Positions 4,196 through 54,440 of a DNA stretch of 64,000 nt are shown piece by piece. Each line of letters opens with the position of its first letter. Position 1 is the first letter of the stretch. This DNA is from Minisyncoccia bacterium (lineage in GTDB: Bacteria; Patescibacteriota; Minisyncoccia; 2-02-FULL-40-12; IGHO2-01-FULL-4-A), in NCBI GenBank assembly GCA_050015375.1, contig JBEKBN010000004.1, positions 15,188 through 79,187 on the forward strand. The letters run 5' to 3'. Under the pieces are notes generated by a model. That model ran no database searches. It was not told where the DNA came from and saw only the letters and a program-made list of their open reading frames with translations. Both the position numbers and the translations under genes were made by a program.

Positions 4196-4231
4196 GAGTA
4201 ATTGTTCATTGTTTTCTAGTTGGAGGTGAAT

Positions 4232-4462
4232 ATGACATTCGATGGGGTTGCAAGAATGAGTGCAATTGGCGAATTCATTCCTGCTGAAAATGATGTCGTT
4301 GCCGAAGCGCGGATTGGCACATTGAGTCAGACCGTTCAGGCAAAGGAAGAATCCGATTGTTATATATGTCACACTCTGATTCATCGGTCTGATTGGATGG
4401 TTCGCGTTGGCATACGCGGTCTGAGGCGCCATCTTTCAGGTGAATGTCCTCGGGATTCCTAA
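4232..4462 (+). CDS. Small Cys/His-containing hypothetical protein (76 aa)
   Basis: The sequence MTFDGVARMSAIGEF...CYICHTLIH...SGECP has its own consensus promoter, a strong GGAGGTG SD 5 nt before the ATG, and a perfect downstream terminator. Confidence 0.45.
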   Translation: MTFDGVARMSAIGEFIPAENDVVAEARIGTLSQTVQAKEESDCYICHTLIHRSDWMVRVGIRGLRRHLSGECPRDS

Positions 4463-4477
4463 AAATCGCAGTCAATT

Positions 4478-4516
4478 AATCGAGGCAGCCGGCGCGCTTC
4501 GCGCGCCGGCTTTTTC
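4478..4516 (+). terminator. Rho-independent terminator
   Basis: gccggcgcgc-ttcg-cgcgccggc is followed by tttttctttt. Confidence 0.7.
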
Positions 4517-5953: not shown

Positions 5954-6023
5954 CATTATGAAGCCAACAGAGTTATTATCCCCGTAGTTCACGAACAACT
6001 AAATGAAGCAAAAGGAGGCAGAA

Positions 6024-6410
6024 ATGCCGAACGGGTACGATTATTCAAAGGAATACGGGCCGCATGATTATTCAGTGAGCCGTGATTGCAAATTTGGATG
6101 TGGATGTTTTGTGGCGTCTTCGAGCTCTCATGGACCGCTTGGATTAGATCCAATAGGCGGTGAATGCCCAGGCAACCCGAAAGATGGCATAAAAACCGGC
6201 TATGATTACGAAGTCGTAGCGGAGAGAAGAATTAGGAAGCTGGGATCAGATCTTTATAAAGCCGAAATGGAATTATCCAAGCTCCGGCACATCAAAACAA
6301 CTCCGAAAGCCAAACTCTTGGAAAGAGCCGAAACAGCCGAGGCGGATTTGAATCGATTTCATGATCTGATCGGCAAAGCAAAAGAATTCATGAATCAATT
6401 TCCCGAATAG
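6024..6410 (+). CDS. Hypothetical Cys-rich small protein
   Basis: The promoter is TTGACA-18-TATTAT at about 5951-5985, followed by an AAGGAGG SD and the start MPNGYDYSKEYGPHDY... An upstream in-frame ATG at 6003 lies inside the SD. The protein contains the motif CKFGCGC...GGECPGNP. Confidence 0.5.
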   Translation: MPNGYDYSKEYGPHDYSVSRDCKFGCGCFVASSSSHGPLGLDPIGGECPGNPKDGIKTGYDYEVVAERRIRKLGSDLYKAEMELSKLRHIKTTPKAKLLERAETAEADLNRFHDLIGKAKEFMNQFPE

Positions 6411-6465: not shown

Positions 6466-6690
6466 CAGGGCACGCCAACCCCCCTCTAAGAAATCCGCGA
6501 TAAGCATTCTGGTAACAAATCGGGAGCGACCGAGCTGTAATCAGCAAGGGTAGCGCGGAGCGAATAGCGGGATACCCGACTCGGAAGGGTTAATACCCGC
6601 CCGCATGGTCGGGAGGGATTCCCGCGCACATGAGCGACCACGATTTGTCAGAATGCGTTCAGGATTTCGTGAGGAGGGGTTGGCGATATT
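6466..6690 (+). ncRNA. Candidate rod-like structured RNA (6S-like architecture), GC-rich, upstream of mreB
   Basis: The closing helix pairs 6473-6486 cgccaacccccctc with 6671-6685 gaggaggggttggcg. A second helix pairs 6507-6522 with 6641-6653. An internal bubble is flanked by direct gagcgacc repeats, followed by the helix gcgcgg/ccgcgc and the apical hairpin gggt-taat-accc. The element is markedly GC-rich compared with its surroundings. Strand and identity are uncertain. Confidence 0.3.
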
Positions 6691-11029: not shown

Positions 11030-11176
11030 TCCCTCACTTTCTGTGGAAATCACACATATTCTTTGAGATAACACTTATTTTTCTTCAAAGCGTAATTCTC
11101 ACAGAAAGTGAGGGATAAGCAACTGTTTCCAATCGAGCTTCATGATTACACTCGCTCTCTTGGACATTTGCTTATC
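11030..11176. repeat. Two interlocked inverted-repeat pairs in the mrdA-greA intergenic region
   Basis: IR1 pairs ccctcactttctgtg (11030-11044) with cacagaaagtgaggg (11099-11113). IR2 pairs ggataagcaa (11112-11121) with ttgcttatcc (11167-11176). Confidence 0.7.
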
Positions 11177-11242
11177 CACAGTTTGTTGAAACAAATTTTG
11201 CGGTTGTGATATAATCTTTACTTATTATTTAACTAATCTACC

Positions 11243-11698
11243 ATGGCACAGTATTTCAGCCCCGAGGGTTTGGAAAAATTGAAAAAAGAATTGGAAGACA
11301 GAAAAGGCGAGATTCGTAACGAAATAACCCGGAAAATTTTGACAGCCAAGGAACTAGGTGACTTATCGGAAAACGCCGAATACGCCGAGGCCAAAGAATC
11401 GCAGAGTTTTAATGAAGGCAGGATATCAGAGCTGGAGGAAACCATCAAAGAAGCTGTTGTTATCGGAGCCAACGGCCGGCATGACGCGGTCATAGTCGGC
11501 TCGACGGTAAAATTAAAATCTCCTCATGGAGATCATAAATTCACCATTGTCGGACCGGCGGAGTCCGATCCGGCGAGGGGTTTCATCTCGAACGAATCGC
11601 CGCTAGGTAGCGCCTTCATTGGGCATAAAAAAGGGGAAGAAGTTGAAGTCAAAACCCCGAGCGGGATTGTGAAATACAAGATCGTGGAAATATCATAG
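11243..11698 (+). CDS. greA: Transcription elongation factor GreA
   Basis: An N-terminal coiled coil with the acidic tip LGDLSENAEY is followed by a C-terminal FKBP-like domain. The promoter TTGAAA-18-TGnTATAAT lies upstream at about 11188-11220. Confidence 0.9.
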   Translation: MAQYFSPEGLEKLKKELEDRKGEIRNEITRKILTAKELGDLSENAEYAEAKESQSFNEGRISELEETIKEAVVIGANGRHDAVIVGSTVKLKSPHGDHKFTIVGPAESDPARGFISNESPLGSAFIGHKKGEEVEVKTPSGIVKYKIVEIS

Positions 11699-11700
11699 CC

Positions 11701-11907
11701 GCGAGTCCGGAAATCCCGGACCAGGCTCACCGGATTGCTTTCCGGGGACTTAGGAAATCTCAGCGAGATTTCCGTCATCCGGTTGTCGGTTGCCGTCGCT
11801 GATTGACGGCTTTTTGATTTCACAAAAAGCCGTCAATCAGACCCTGCCGACGGCACCGACAACGGCCCCTGAAAGCAATCCGGTTCGCAGGGATTTCCGA
11901 ACTCGCT
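11701..11907. repeat. Near-perfect palindrome of about 207 nt, arms about 95 nt, centred on a bidirectional terminator hairpin
   Basis: The centre is gattgacggcttttt-gatttcac-aaaaagccgtcaatc (11801-11838). Outer arms pair 11783-11798 with 11848-11862, 11729-11748 with 11866-11885, and 11707-11717 with 11891-11900. Confidence 0.7.
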
Positions 11908-12090
11908 CCAGTTCTTCGCGGACATTTTGAGAGGCAATCACCTCGCCTAATCGCCGGAATATTATTGAAGTTCGGAAATGACCAGCTTCGATATTTTTGG
12001 TCTGCGGCTCAAATGGTGGAAATGAGCCGCAGGAATTAAAAAGCCCACCGATATTCTGGTGGGCGCGGAATAGAAGGCGGGATATGTAAT

Positions 12091-12378
12091 CTAGTTGCTG
12101 GGAGGCGTAATAATTTGATTCCCGGTCTCAGAAATGAGCTTTTCGACCGTTGGGAGTATATCGTCCCACTCAAATGCTCTAGCGCGCTCAATACAAAACT
12201 TGTAGCGATCTACATAGATGTCCTGAACGCCAGGCACATTCAGGATTTGCTTCAGAAGTTGTTTCGTCATTTCCGCGACATCGGAACTCTTGGCACTCAT
12301 TGTGCCATCCGGTGAAAAAAGAACATTGGTGTGAAGGAACATCTTAAACGAGCCAAACGGATCTCTAATGATTTTCAT
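12091..12378 (-). CDS. Nfu/NifU N-terminal-domain-like small protein (Fe-S scaffold related)
   Basis: MKIIRDPFGSFKMF...LLKQILNVPGVQDIYVDRYKFCIERA resembles the Nfu_N domain pattern. An AGGAAAGGGA SD precedes the start. A terminator hairpin cccacc-agaatatc-ggtggg plus a U-tract lies downstream on the minus strand. The ORF track extends the frame to 12408. Confidence 0.45.
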   Translation of the reverse strand: MKIIRDPFGSFKMFLHTNVLFSPDGTMSAKSSDVAEMTKQLLKQILNVPGVQDIYVDRYKFCIERARAFEWDDILPTVEKLISETGNQIITPPSN

Positions 12379-12500
12379 ACTTTCCCTTTCCTTGTCTGCA
12401 GCGCTCACCCCTATTGGTAGCCTGCATATATAATGATAGCATAATGAGATTTGCTTGTCAAGTAGATGTGTTTTTGTCGGAATTTTGATATGATTTTACT

Positions 12501-13995: not shown

Positions 13996-14044
13996 CTCTC
14001 GGATATTGCCTCTCGGGACATCGATTTCCCCAGCGAGAGAATCG

Positions 14045-14095
14045 CCGTTCCGGATTTCGGGCTCACAGAAATGAGCGCCCTCGAGACAACATCCC
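14045..14095 (+). repeat. Dispersed intergenic repeat, about 50 bp (copy 1), immediately upstream of serS
   Basis: ttccggatttcgggctcacagaaatgagcgccctcgagacaac recurs in inverted orientation at 42268-42322 with about two mismatches. It contains the hairpin gctca-cagaaa-tgagc. Confidence 0.65.
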
Positions 14096-15420: not shown

Positions 15421-15678
15421 ATGGTATATTTTGTGTACGTTCTTCAATCTATTCGTGATAAAAAGTTTTATACGGGATATACAAAGAATTTAAAGTTAAG
15501 ATTTGAGCAACACCAAAAAGGATTGGTCAACTCAACAAAAAATAGGAGACCATTAAAATTGATATATTTTGAAGGGTGTCTAAATCAACAGGATGCTACC
15601 CACAGGGAAAAGTATTTAAAAACATATTTAGGTAAATTTTTTTTGAGAAATAGGCTCAAATCTTATTTAACAGGGTAA
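15421..15678 (+). CDS. GIY-YIG nuclease family small protein
   Basis: VYFVYVLQS...KFYTGYTKNLKLRFEQH is a GIY-YIG motif. The gene is markedly AT-rich and wedged between the serS stop and the ftsQ-like ATG. Its TAA stop directly abuts the next ATG. Confidence 0.7.
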   Translation: MVYFVYVLQSIRDKKFYTGYTKNLKLRFEQHQKGLVNSTKNRRPLKLIYFEGCLNQQDATHREKYLKTYLGKFFLRNRLKSYLTG

Positions 15679-28160: not shown

Positions 28161-28910
28161 ATGATAAAAAAGGAGGAGGAAAAATTGGAAGCAATAAGAT
28201 TGAGAAAGCTGGGTTTATCTTATTCAGAGATATTGACAAAAGTACCAGTTGCAAAGTCGTCCCTAGGGTTATGGCTTAAATCGGTTGGTCTTTCAAAGAA
28301 AATAAAATATAATCTAACAGAAAAGAAAAGACTTGCAGGATTAAGAGGAGCCCAAAAAAGACACGAACAAAGAATTTCTTTAACAAAAAAGATACTTTAT
28401 AATGCTGAAAACGAAATCAAATATATTTCTAAGAGAGAGCTATGGCTTATCGGCGTATGCTTATATTGGGCCGAAGGTTCTAAGGAGAAAGAAAGACATC
28501 CAGGATCAAATGTTCAATTTTCAAATTCCGATCCAAAAATGATTCTTCTCTTTCTTAAATGGCTCGACGAAACGTGCAAAATCCCGCAAAACATGATATA
28601 TTTTGATATATACATTCACGAAAGCCATAGGAAAAGAGTTGATTTAGTCAAAGAATTCTGGCGCAATTGTACCGGCTACCCAAAAGAACAATTTGATCAC
28701 GTATATTACAAGAAGAATAAAATAAGGACAAAAAGAATAAATATTGGTGATTCTTATTATGGGGTTGTTAAGGTAAGAGTCAGGAGAAGTTCGGCTTTTC
28801 TTAGACGTATTGCTGGATGGATAGAAGGTGTTTGCGATGTAACTTTGCCGGGTGGTGTATTTGGTAACACGCCTGCCTTTGAAGCAGGAGACACTAGGTT
28901 CGAACCCTAG
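28161..28910 (+). CDS. AT-rich HTH-domain hypothetical protein whose 3' end reads into tRNA-Gln
   Basis: The N-terminal HTH-like segment LEAIRLRKLGLSYSEILTKV is followed by a basic region and a WLIGVCLYWAEGSKEK segment of uncertain LAGLIDADG-like character. The last 21 codons lie inside the tRNA (28846 onward). An alternative TTG start at 28186 follows an AGGAGGAGG SD. Confidence 0.4.
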   Translation: MIKKEEEKLEAIRLRKLGLSYSEILTKVPVAKSSLGLWLKSVGLSKKIKYNLTEKKRLAGLRGAQKRHEQRISLTKKILYNAENEIKYISKRELWLIGVCLYWAEGSKEKERHPGSNVQFSNSDPKMILLFLKWLDETCKIPQNMIYFDIYIHESHRKRVDLVKEFWRNCTGYPKEQFDHVYYKKNKIRTKRINIGDSYYGVVKVRVRRSSAFLRRIAGWIEGVCDVTLPGGVFGNTPAFEAGDTRFEP

Positions 28911-28921
28911 CCCGGCAGCCA
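28846..28921 (+). tRNA. tRNA-Gln (anticodon UUG), CCA encoded
   Basis: The cloverleaf was read directly. Acceptor arm tgccggg pairs with cccggca. The D-arm is gtgt-atttggta-acac. The anticodon arm is cctgc-cTTTGaa-gcagg. The variable loop is agaca. The T-arm is ctagg-ttcgaac-cctag. The discriminator is G, followed by CCA. The U1:A72 pair and G73 are Gln identity elements. Confidence 0.85.
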
Positions 28922-42267: not shown

Positions 42268-42322
42268 AGCGTACCGGCCGTTGTCTCGAGGGCGCTCATT
42301 TCTGTGAGCCCGATATCCGGAA
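42268..42322 (-). repeat. Dispersed intergenic repeat, about 50 bp (copy 2, inverted relative to copy 1)
   Basis: gttgtctcgagggcgctcatttctgtgagcccgatatccggaa is the reverse complement of 14048-14090. Confidence 0.65.
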
Positions 42323-42578
42323 TGGTGAGGATGAGGGCGTGATTGCATGGTCTGGGAACATCGGAAAGTTGTATAATGTTCTTCCTGACAACTTTCTGAT
42401 GTTCCCAGAATCCACAGAAATGAGCGAGTCAAAAAACTCGCTGGGTTTTTTGACGTCCCGAGAGGCAATGGGCGACACAGCAAATGTTTAAATATTTCAA
42501 GATTTAATAAATTGAGTGGCTCGCGCACTTGTGAATAACCCCATCGCTATTCACCAAGCGTATGCTATAATATACTTT

Positions 42579-47269: not shown

Positions 47270-47278
47270 CGTTTAGCG

Positions 47279-47477
47279 CCAGCCCTTGCCTCTTCTCGCT
47301 TAGTGCTCGGCTTCGCCTCGGAACTCATTTCGGCTGGGTTTGTTACCTTGGGTTCTAAGTGACCCTCACCGTCGCGGGCTATTCAGCGACGGGTATTGAC
47401 CTAGAACCCAAGACAAATCCGCCTCAATTTCGTCCCTCGGCTCGCCTGCGCGGCCACTCGAAGAGGCAAGGGCTGGC
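47279..47477. repeat. GC-rich rod-like structured intergenic element (about 200 nt), candidate ncRNA or MITE/REP-like repeat
   Basis: The perfect 18-bp closing helix pairs gccagcccttgcctcttc (47279-47296) with gaagaggcaagggctggc (47460-47477). An internal long helix pairs ggtttgttaccttgggttctag with ctagaacccaagacaaatcc. The apical hairpin is ccgtcgc-gggctattcag-gcgacgg. Confidence 0.35.
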
Positions 47478-47659
47478 TCGGACTATTATTGAAGGTCTAC
47501 AATCTTAAGGGTGCTCAGAGAGACCGGGACTCGCAGGGATTTTGCGGAAAATCAAACCTTTCAAAGATGGTATTTAAATGTAAACGCCCCCGAGACAACA
47601 CCCGCCACATTAAATCCGATTGACGCAATGGAGAAAGTGAATAAATTTCTAAGGGATAA

Positions 47660-54182: not shown

Positions 54183-54440
54183 CTCGCCCCTCGCTTCCAA
54201 CCAGGCTCACCCTTGCCTGTTTTCCGGGACGCTCCGACTCTATGCGGCCGGCGGCCGCCTCATTGTCCCTTCACATGTTACGGGACAATCATTGAAGTCT
54301 CCGCTCATCGTCTCGCCTCGCTCGTTGTGGCATAATTTCCCACCCGCTTCGCTCTGCGGAAATTACGCCACAACCCCTTGCCCGCTCGGCTTCGATGGTG
54401 CCCTCAAAACAGGCAGGGGTTCGCAGAAAGCGAGGGGCTC
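54183..54440. repeat. GC-rich structured intergenic element (about 258 nt) directly after mnmA
   Basis: The closing helix pairs gcccctcgcttc (54186-54197) with gaagcgaggggc (54427-54438), continuing with cccttgcctgtttt paired to aaaacaggcagggg. The internal hairpins are gtccc-ttcacatgttac-gggac and gttgtggcataatttcc...ggaaattacgccacaac. It shares the short motifs cccttgcct and gctcggcttcg with element 47279-47477, and accaggctcacc with 11716-11727. Confidence 0.35.

Follow-up and report, generated by a model that had tools for sequence, protein, structure and literature searches.

Genomes of Patescibacteria measure about 1 Mb, are tightly packed and are usually regarded as repeat-poor. What, then, is a palindrome of some 200 nt doing directly downstream of greA in one of them? 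We addressed this question in a 64,000-nt stretch of DNA (the window) from a metagenome-assembled genome of a Patescibacteria bacterium, which NCBI names Minisyncoccia bacterium. The initial annotation had placed a palindrome at 11701-11907; it is present there but ends at 11906 and measures 206 nt. We conclude that it is probably a member of a lineage-restricted repeat family in a Minisyncoccia host, the copies of which are palindromic, structured, non-coding, interspersed and 160-240 nt long and are of the kind represented by miniature inverted-repeat transposable elements (MITEs), REPINs, ERIC and YPAL. This family, referred to from here on as family A, is previously undescribed, and we found no literature on MITEs or palindromic repeats of such a kind in Patescibacteria or the Candidate Phyla Radiation.

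The palindrome recurs in unrelated intergenic regions

Other copies were sought by scanning metagenomes with a 19-mer from the arm, and a covariance model (R1, with 60 pairs) was then built from seven copies. R1 recognized 13 distinct members, the window palindrome included. As shown in Table 1, copies 72-99% identical to it lie in unrelated flanks on other contigs; contigs of 10-49 kb carry two or three members each, with a maximum of three on one 49-kb contig, and the window carries two, the second being a distant member (subfamily A'). The copy-bearing contigs hold housekeeping genes only, namely those for UvrB, RuvA, a Mur ligase, RNase J, a class I tRNA synthetase, YchF, an aldolase, SSB, RecA and FtsK. 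The element is multicopy in unrelated chromosomal intergenic regions. Contigs L099 and L105 most likely carry opposite sides of a single copy, because their 119-nt overlap shows no difference and each flank is the inverted complement of the other. The existence of copies in unrelated flanks supports the suggestion in the initial annotation of a repeat element of the MITE kind and implies that an oversized terminator is not the whole story.

The family has a narrow distribution. In about 640 kb covering 81 greA loci of other Patescibacteria, R1 gave no credible hit (best 14 bits, E 0.76), nor did it match L109, a syntenic relative with a LysRS 72% identical. No match was obtained in a scan of viral contigs with a core 21-mer or by blastn against plasmid and phage records. 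Within the window, a search for either arm with up to three mismatches returned the arms themselves only, and blastn among the intergenic regions gave no second close copy. Sixteen single 19-mer matches in metagenomes (L084, L087, L088, L090, L091 and others) were discarded, as they are not R1 hits and their number fits chance. Family A contains no conserved ORF (open reading frame), since the apical region is replaced in other copies.

The site downstream of greA was also compared with that of relatives. The gene order mreC-mreD-PBP2-greA-lysS-serS is common across the group, usually with lysS directly after greA. In the window, the gap between greA and lysS is 836 nt and holds the palindrome and an Nfu_N-like gene, compared with 193 nt and an ordinary short terminator in L109. 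The element is absent at the same site in relatives, and, because these have no insert between greA and lysS, the palindrome is a lineage-specific gain.

The palindrome might be a fold-back chimera of assembly, and the short-read Logan assembly SRR7028199 is indeed broken on either side of it: contig L002 ends at 11740, 42 nt into the palindrome, and L111 starts at 11950, 44 nt past it. These breaks are consistent with a repeat or palindrome disrupting the assembly; metagenome contigs L092, L099 and L105 likewise end inside copies of family A, and elements of this type fragment short-read assemblies. However, an ENA contig (L001) and a JGI contig (L003), which come from independent assemblies, carry the identical sequence, and the asymmetries of the arms are kept in copies from other samples, where folding back would yield perfect arms. 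Because the same sequence is found in two other assemblies, we regard the palindrome as genuine and the chance of an artefact as negligible.

The element is an oriented structure with a three-way-junction core

The palindrome folds into a single long hairpin in predictions for both strands. Folded as RNA, it is equally exceptional on each (z of about -13), with a minimum free energy of -129.5 kcal/mol on the plus strand (z -12.9; 0 of 200 shuffles as low) and -137.0 kcal/mol on the minus strand (z -12.8); folded as DNA, it gives -81.9 (z -13.3). The initial annotation had described near-perfect arms of about 95 nt, which is not what we found: the arms are unequal (116 nt on the left and 85 nt on the right), form 81 bp and are interrupted by a 21-nt side hairpin and three asymmetric loops, among them 11718-11724 opposite 11889 and 11841-11847 on the right arm alone. 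Above the closing stem P0, GGACCAG on the left faces a single A on the right, followed by a GC pair step and a 2x2 TC/TC loop. A three-way junction then lies between helix P1/P2, the side hairpin P3 and helix P4, and P3 and the junction bases of the left arm have no partner in the right arm.

Copies that are 70-85% identical keep the basal module (CC(G/A)RACCWGGCTCAC ... GGTTCGCAGG), the GGGACTT junction, the P3 loop C(C/T)CAGCGAG, the TCAT before P4 and the ACCNTGC after the apical hairpin P5; most have a G-ATTA-C apical tetraloop on stems that otherwise differ. The basal sequence ACC[AT]GGCTCAC occurs in all full family A copies and in the element at 54200. The stems covary, as in P3, where 7 of 7 pairs of helix 3 are changed on both sides. 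Across 12 copies, 95.2% of cells are paired, compared with 73.5% after shuffling and at most 46% with slid partners, and 50 of 60 pairs are changed on both sides; these values come from an alignment fitted to the model, which favours structure, and an independent MAFFT/RNAalifold alignment gave 19 of 60 compensated pairs. A three-way-junction core with covarying stems is thus common to the copies and, because the asymmetries of the arms are conserved, the element is an oriented structure and not a simple palindrome. A tertiary pairing of the basal loop (CAGG) with ACCNTGC was considered and dropped, as it showed no covariation across copies.

The conserved sequence is internal, and the outermost 6-25 bp of the stem vary by copy. 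In the window palindrome, the outer 10 nt of the left half of P0 (GCGAGTCCGG) are absent from other copies, and blastn similarity begins at 11711. Many outer ends read GCGAG(Y)C ... G(R)CTCGC. Certain outer-stem types recur: one is common to L086 and L102b, and another (GAGCCCCTCGCTT/AAGCGAGGGGCTC) is shared, together with the basal module, by L085, L107 and the window element at 54191, the cores of which differ. Further, L105b has the upper part of family A atop a different base, and the CCCAGCGAG motif of P3 turns up in other element families too. The recurrence of outer-stem types on different cores indicates that the family is a mosaic.

One copy could be followed across two genomes. The element in L105/L099 and that in L089 lie after orthologous genes (products ending ...GDWGPWKLVEVS(K/R)K), and in both the outer stem contains the last codons and the stop codon of the upstream gene. 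The elements are 83% identical, compared with 74.6% at the nucleotide level for the two orthologous flanking genes (85% and 74% for their proteins), and their differences are mirrored in both arms (TAG/CTA in one and TAA/TTA in the other, and a 5-nt AATCC/GGATT indel). It follows from this comparison that both genomes have kept the element since their divergence, that its rate of evolution does not exceed that of coding DNA and that its arms co-evolve. These features show constraint; selection on pairing and templated correction of one arm from the other would both fit.

Orientation and strand bear on whether the element acts as RNA or DNA

Nine of the 13 copies start 5-18 nt past the stop codon of a co-oriented gene, as measured from the start of the model hit, and their outer stem begins 0-7 nt past the stop codon or contains it. 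One more copy is co-oriented but 228 nt off, and three are antisense to both neighbours. Because the stop-adjacent copies in L105 and L089 are orthologous, the bias amounts to 8 of 12 independent loci. It is present also where the downstream gene is convergent, and harmless insertion near 3' ends is therefore not a full explanation.

This positional bias favours a second interpretation, less likely but serious, which overlaps in part with that of an interspersed repeat: the element may primarily be a structured RNA module that acts in cis at mRNA 3' ends and serves the host, with its repeat-like distribution secondary. Docked at stop codons, such a module would serve in defining, protecting or processing the 3' end, or its conserved loops would be the binding site of a dedicated RNA-binding protein. 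The unpaired motifs (basal loop, GGGACTT, CCAGCGAG loop, TCAT, G-ATTA-C tetraloop and ACCNTGC) are kept while the stems covary, and the orthologous copy is better conserved than its flanking genes. For 7 of 11 copies, the sense strand gives the more stable closing-stem duplex, by 8-13 kcal/mol for L107, L089, L102b and L105b, and several copies have G-U pairs in their sense-strand closing stems. On the other hand, in 9 of 11 copies the whole element folds more stably as antisense, and the three antisense copies do not fit a module of this type. The core contains few G-U pairs (about 10 of 646 cells), and in the model alignment G-U and A-C mismatches are about equal in number (15 against 13), which is unexpected if selection acts on one RNA strand; the paucity of wobble pairs leans towards a constraint at the DNA level or on two strands. 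Nor is there a matching Rfam family: at the locus, Rfam 15 gave only weak miRNA-like hairpins at E up to 10 (best mir-723, 27.9 bits against a gathering score of 63), and in the whole window nothing relevant was found at gathering thresholds, which yield tRNA only, or at E 0.5.

Although we favour an interspersed repeat, several observations weigh against it. There is neither a target-site duplication nor a conserved terminal inverted repeat, and mobility is deduced from the distribution of the copies. No transposase, integrase or reverse transcriptase was found in about 37 kb of three copy-bearing contigs, and no transposase, RAYT, integrase or reverse transcriptase in the annotated part of the window (1 to about 46,000) and the adjoining 8 kb; between 46,000 and 64,000, annotation covers four ORFs adjacent to the elements at 47278 and 54191. 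Conservation no lower than that of coding DNA, together with conserved unpaired motifs, is at least as compatible with a host function as with a selfish element. In addition, the terminator feature described below is not family-wide, and the strand evidence conflicts, with the folds pointing to the antisense strand, the closing stems to the sense strand and G-U and A-C counts that are equal. If family A is an interspersed repeat, an enzyme acting in trans would have spread the copies, probably by way of a folded single strand, and purifying selection on the fold would then have kept them.

We also considered a more speculative, rather unlikely proposal, in which these elements would form a class of stop-codon-docked three-way-junction hairpins specific to this Patescibacteria lineage. 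A dedicated protein would read the basal loop, the CCAGCGAG loop and the G-ATTA-C tetraloop; spread and nesting would occur by insertion at the centre or apex of hairpins already present; and the arms would be kept complementary by templated copying from arm to arm. Such copying would explain both the mirrored indel and the outer stems that contain the last codons of the upstream gene. Were this true, it would amount to a new insertion mechanism or a new system for organizing mRNA 3' ends, in hosts with minimal RNA-decay machinery. More generally, if the elements act on RNA, they would represent a lineage-specific means of ending or stabilizing mRNAs; if they are mobile DNA, then the lack of terminal inverted repeats and target-site duplications, the nesting and the co-evolving arms would point to a single-strand hairpin mechanism not described for the phylum.

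Terminator-like sites are a property of one subfamily

The central hairpin had been called terminator-like in the initial annotation, and it does look so in both directions, although this is confined to one subfamily. On the plus strand, the terminator scan reported a site inside the left arm and none between greA and the element; the left arm folded by itself retains this terminator-like hairpin, and four local hairpins are predicted in a transcript ending at this site. On the minus strand, a mirror site was read from the sequence; its loop of 12 nt left it unlisted by the scan, which accepted loops of 3-8 nt only. A G+C-rich hairpin followed by a U-run is thus found in each direction at the palindrome centre, as in bidirectional terminators. 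The apical variant with U-runs is common to the window copy, L086, L099/L105 and L089, whereas in L085, L092, L102 and L107 the apical hairpin is swapped for stems without a U-run and the core is kept. Because U-run hairpins are absent from the other subfamilies, termination is a property of this subfamily and not the reason for the family.

We infer from these features that at greA the element serves as 3' untranslated region and terminator. Beginning 2 nt past the stop codon (11696-11698), it would be transcribed as the 3' untranslated region of greA, and transcription would end at about 11811-20, within the element. Read-through from the convergent Nfu_N-like gene would meet the minus-strand mirror site, which would back up that gene's own terminator. 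Should transcription pass the centre, the full 206 nt could fold at about -130 kcal/mol, and the resulting hairpin would stop 3' exonucleases or be cleaved by a double-strand RNase.

Could the palindrome then be an unusually long, locus-specific bidirectional terminator for greA and the convergent Nfu_N gene and nothing more? The terminator-like sites in both directions and the position between convergent genes would suit this, but the same core occurs at 12 other loci, and, as a complete explanation, it is refuted by these copies. Further, the U-run is missing from other subfamilies, relatives have an ordinary short terminator, and the Nfu_N gene has a terminator of its own: the second hairpin terminator noted in the initial annotation was confirmed, with a stem at 12064-12043 followed by TTTTTAATTC. 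We therefore consider this explanation highly improbable.

A recombination site finds little favour

Recombination and cruciform extrusion had also been proposed for the palindrome, and neither idea gained support. As a recombination site, the palindrome would be a folded single-stranded DNA site like attC or the CTX-phage attachment site, marking a cassette (the Nfu_N gene plus the palindrome) inserted between greA and lysS. We regard this as improbable. A combination of small ORF and palindromic element has been gained relative to L109 at two sites, greA-lysS and proS-mreB, and each of the four window elements of approximately 200 nt (at 11701, 54191, 47278 and 6473) follows the 3' end of a small ORF at a distance of 63-184 nt; the two of these four ORFs that were compared, the Nfu_N gene and a 135-aa ORF (6003-6410), have no counterpart at the site in L109. 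Nearly pure Watson-Crick pairing is also what a DNA-level constraint would lead one to expect. Against this, the attC R''/R' consensus (RYYYAAC ... GTTRRRY) was absent on reading the sequence, in which the right end is GGTTCGCAGG and RYYYAAC is missing from the left end. Instead of a co-oriented cassette array, the surroundings consist of core housekeeping genes that face either way, no integrase was found in the annotated sequence, and the convergent small ORF is missing beside most metagenome copies.

Features of the locus

The coordinates of the palindrome, its parts, its neighbours and the other copies are given in Table 1. A strong sigma-70-like promoter of greA (TTGAAA-18-TATAAT with TG) lies at 11186-11215. 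Upstream of it, between the PBP2 gene and the promoter, 11030-11115 forms an 86-nt hairpin with 24-nt arms that are 88% complementary and 38 nt apart, of which blastn of the collected sequences gave no further copy. The spacer at 11908-12037 contains a third copy of the outer-stem word (AGTTCGGAAAT, 11969-11979), which could pair with 11893-11903 instead of the closing stem, and a 10-bp hairpin at 12002-12032 with a GCTCA...TGAGC core resembling family D (see below). In another relative (L006, GreA 73% identical), a branched palindromic structure of about 250 nt (4214-4480) starts 6 nt past the greA stop codon; it is closed by CCTCATCACAAAAATTAC/GTAATTTTTGTGATGAGG, is not matched by R1, and lies on a contig that ends shortly beyond it.

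Table 1. Features of the greA palindrome and its neighbours in the window, and further members of family A.
Feature	Position	Strand	Description
Whole palindrome	11701..11906	+	Family A element in sense orientation (same direction as greA); R1 222 bits over 11710-11897
Closing stem P0, left half	11701..11717	+	Pairs with 11890-11906; ungapped, 17 nt, 94%
Basal module, left side	11718..11728	+	Conserved GGACCAG-GC-TC; asymmetric internal loop with 11885-11889 (TC-GC-A)
P1/P2 helix, left strand	11729..11747	+	Pairs with 11866-11884; ungapped, 19 nt, 95%; covaries in divergent members (helix 2: 18/20 pairs changed on both sides)
Side hairpin P3	11753..11773	+	21 nt, left arm only; GGAAATCTC-AGC-GAGATTTCC
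P4 helix, left strand	11779..11798	+	Pairs with 11848-11865; conserved TCAT (11775-11778) directly before
Terminator-like site for greA	11792..11820	+	GCCGTCGCTGATTGACGGC then TTTTTGATTT; hairpin 11792-11810; terminator scan
Apical hairpin P5	11799..11840	+	Perfect 18-bp stem (11799-11816/11823-11840, ungapped, 18 nt, 100%), 6-nt loop ATTTCA; helix 5: 7/7 pairs changed on both sides
Mirror terminator-like site	11819..11854	-	GCCGTCGGCAGGGTCTGATTGACGGC then TTTTTGTGAA; hairpin 11854-11829 plus TTTTTGTG
ACCNTGC motif	11841..11847	+	Conserved, unpaired, right arm only; present in divergent members; here a 7-nt bulge, ACCCTGC
Closing stem P0, right half	11890..11906	+	Partner of 11701-11717
greA	11243..11698	+	151 aa; Pfam GreA_GreB_N and GreA_GreB, E about 1e-24
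Intrinsic terminator of Nfu_N-like gene	12034..12064	-	Terminator scan
Nfu_N-like gene	12091..12408	-	Convergent; Pfam Nfu_N
Distant member, subfamily A'	54191..54433	+	R1 27.8 bits, E about 1e-4; starts 8 nt past stop of mnmA-like gene
L086 copy			98% identical; after EF-G
L099 and L105 copies			98-99% identical; both contigs end inside element
L089 copy			85%
L085 copy			85%
L102 copy			80%
L107 copy			72%
L092 copy			Partial
Divergent R1 member	L105:3066-3236
Divergent R1 member	L085:7455-7647
Divergent R1 member	L099:9912-10110
Divergent R1 member	L102:5384-5579

Other structured elements in the window

Family A is not the only family of this type: conserved, structured elements of about 200 nt, belonging to several families, fill intergenic regions beside core genes in this small-genome Patescibacteria. 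Family B comprises palindromic elements of about 213 nt at window 6473-6685 (minus strand) and at L113:19620-19835, in the same genome about 6.7 kb to the left of the window start. They are closed by long stems, share sequence blocks (ACGCATTCYGACAAAT... and CTATTCGCTCC) and have GCTG-ATTA-CAGC or GG-ATTA-CC as their apical tetraloop; their similarity to family A consists of short motifs only and is without statistical support. The window copy lies between the 135-aa ORF and mreB, where L109 has 176 nt only at its proS-mreB site. Family C consists of hairpins of about 200 nt at window 47278-47477 and L102:3628-3840, about 75-82% identical, with compensatory stem changes (GGGTTC/GAACCC in one and GAATAT/ATATTC in the other). 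Its window copy starts 9 nt past the stop codon of a PolB-like exonuclease gene, and about 45 nt beyond it, at 47520-47545, stands a solitary GGGACTCGCAGGGATTTT, like the right basal module of family A.

Family D elements, of about 185 nt, occur at window 42281-42466 and L113:14794-14958, with a partial copy at window 14013-14089. Their ends are conserved (GGGCGCTCATTTCTGTGAGCCC ... CACAGAAATGAGCGAGTC-hairpin-GACGTCCCGAG), their variable apical hairpin has a loop with a perfect TATAAT, and they contain a hairpin with a CCCAGCGAG loop in antisense. The lysS-serS spacer consists mostly of the partial family D copy, and the ATG that opens the longest serS ORF (14071) falls within it, upstream of the conserved SerRS N terminus (MLDIKF...), which starts at about 14113. 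Elements of this type thus mislead ORF callers, through overlapping spurious ORFs and a serS start miscalled within a repeat.

Three further features of the window were noted. A perfect 38-nt palindrome without a spacer (GCATGTAGATATCCACCAT/ATGGTGGATATCTACATGC) lies at 19262-19299 between two minus-strand genes for PMT-family glycosyltransferases. At 15421-15678, right after serS and followed by ORFs without a Pfam match, is an 85-aa ORF with a GIY-YIG domain, possibly a small nuclease or what remains of a homing endonuclease. A tRNA-Gln (anticodon TTG) at 28846-28921 is the sole RNA gene found by Rfam or ARAGORN in the 64 kb, and the longest ORF overlapping it (28161-28910) is probably spurious.

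Comparison with known systems

Some known systems were set aside. Integron attC sites were rejected on the grounds given above. The IS200/IS605-derived PATE, with direct subterminal hairpins and a fixed 4-5-nt 5' target, was rejected as well, since family A has a single nested hairpin and its 5' flanks share stop codons only. A hammerhead core, sought by eye, was not found.

The resemblance to classical MITEs is partial. Family A elements are shorter than about 600 bp, non-coding and present in several copies, and the dispersed-repeat part of the MITE interpretation in the initial annotation stands. Its other part does not: in the 12 nt outside the stem of seven copies inspected, no consistent direct repeat was seen, and the termini, where the outer stem varies though some types recur, form no conserved terminal inverted repeat. 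Like the Correia/NEMIS elements of Neisseria, which are small, palindromic, co-transcribed repeats with long RNA hairpins and possible transcription signals, family A elements form long hairpins, but Correia elements have conserved terminal inverted repeats of 24-26 bp and a TA duplication, neither of which is found in family A.

REPINs are hairpin-forming inverted doublets in extragenic space, in which compensatory changes are common, which are thought to act as single-stranded DNA or mRNA hairpins and which show long vertical inheritance (PMC3116915). Compensatory changes characterize family A too (the 50 of 60 pairs above). However, REPINs measure about 70-120 nt and consist of two 20-40-nt REP units tagged GTAG or CGTC, together with a single-copy RAYT gene, whereas the arms of family A are unequal, no RAYT is among the annotated genes, and no tag is conserved (the CGTC of P4, in GCCGTCG, becomes GCCGTTG and GCCGCCA in other copies). 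With BIMEs, family A shares a mosaic of modules, in which outer stems, the hairpin with the CCAGCGAG loop and apical hairpins recombine among copies and families, but BIMEs are tandem REP arrays with linker motifs and not single nested three-way-junction hairpins.

ERIC (or IRU) elements of 127 bp are, according to PMC2229807 (citing De Gregorio 2005), co-transcribed with flanking genes and exert an orientation-dependent effect on the stability of the upstream mRNA. Like family A, they are imperfect palindromes in transcribed intergenic regions with larger variants through internal insertions; they differ in having TA termini, short terminal inverted repeats and target-site duplications, and most family A copies lie within 18 nt of a stop codon. 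A blastn search in "distant" mode against 5,426 complete E. coli genomes gave no match that would indicate similarity to ERIC, REP or BIME sequences. The 168-bp Yersinia palindromic sequences (YPAL/RU-2) have no TA termini, carry internal inverted repeats and target sites in or near regions of dyad symmetry (PMC2229807). They share with family A a non-coding, palindromic, intergenic nature, a length of about 170-200 bp, a composition that is not A+T-rich and the internal position of the inverted repeats, but they belong to another phylum, show no sequence similarity and have direct target-site duplications of 3-26 bp, of which none was seen in family A, the core of which is a conserved three-way junction with loop motifs. 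Overall, family A stands closest in kind to the bacterial interspersed palindromic repeats, i.e. YPAL/RU-2, ERIC, Correia, BIMEs and REPINs.

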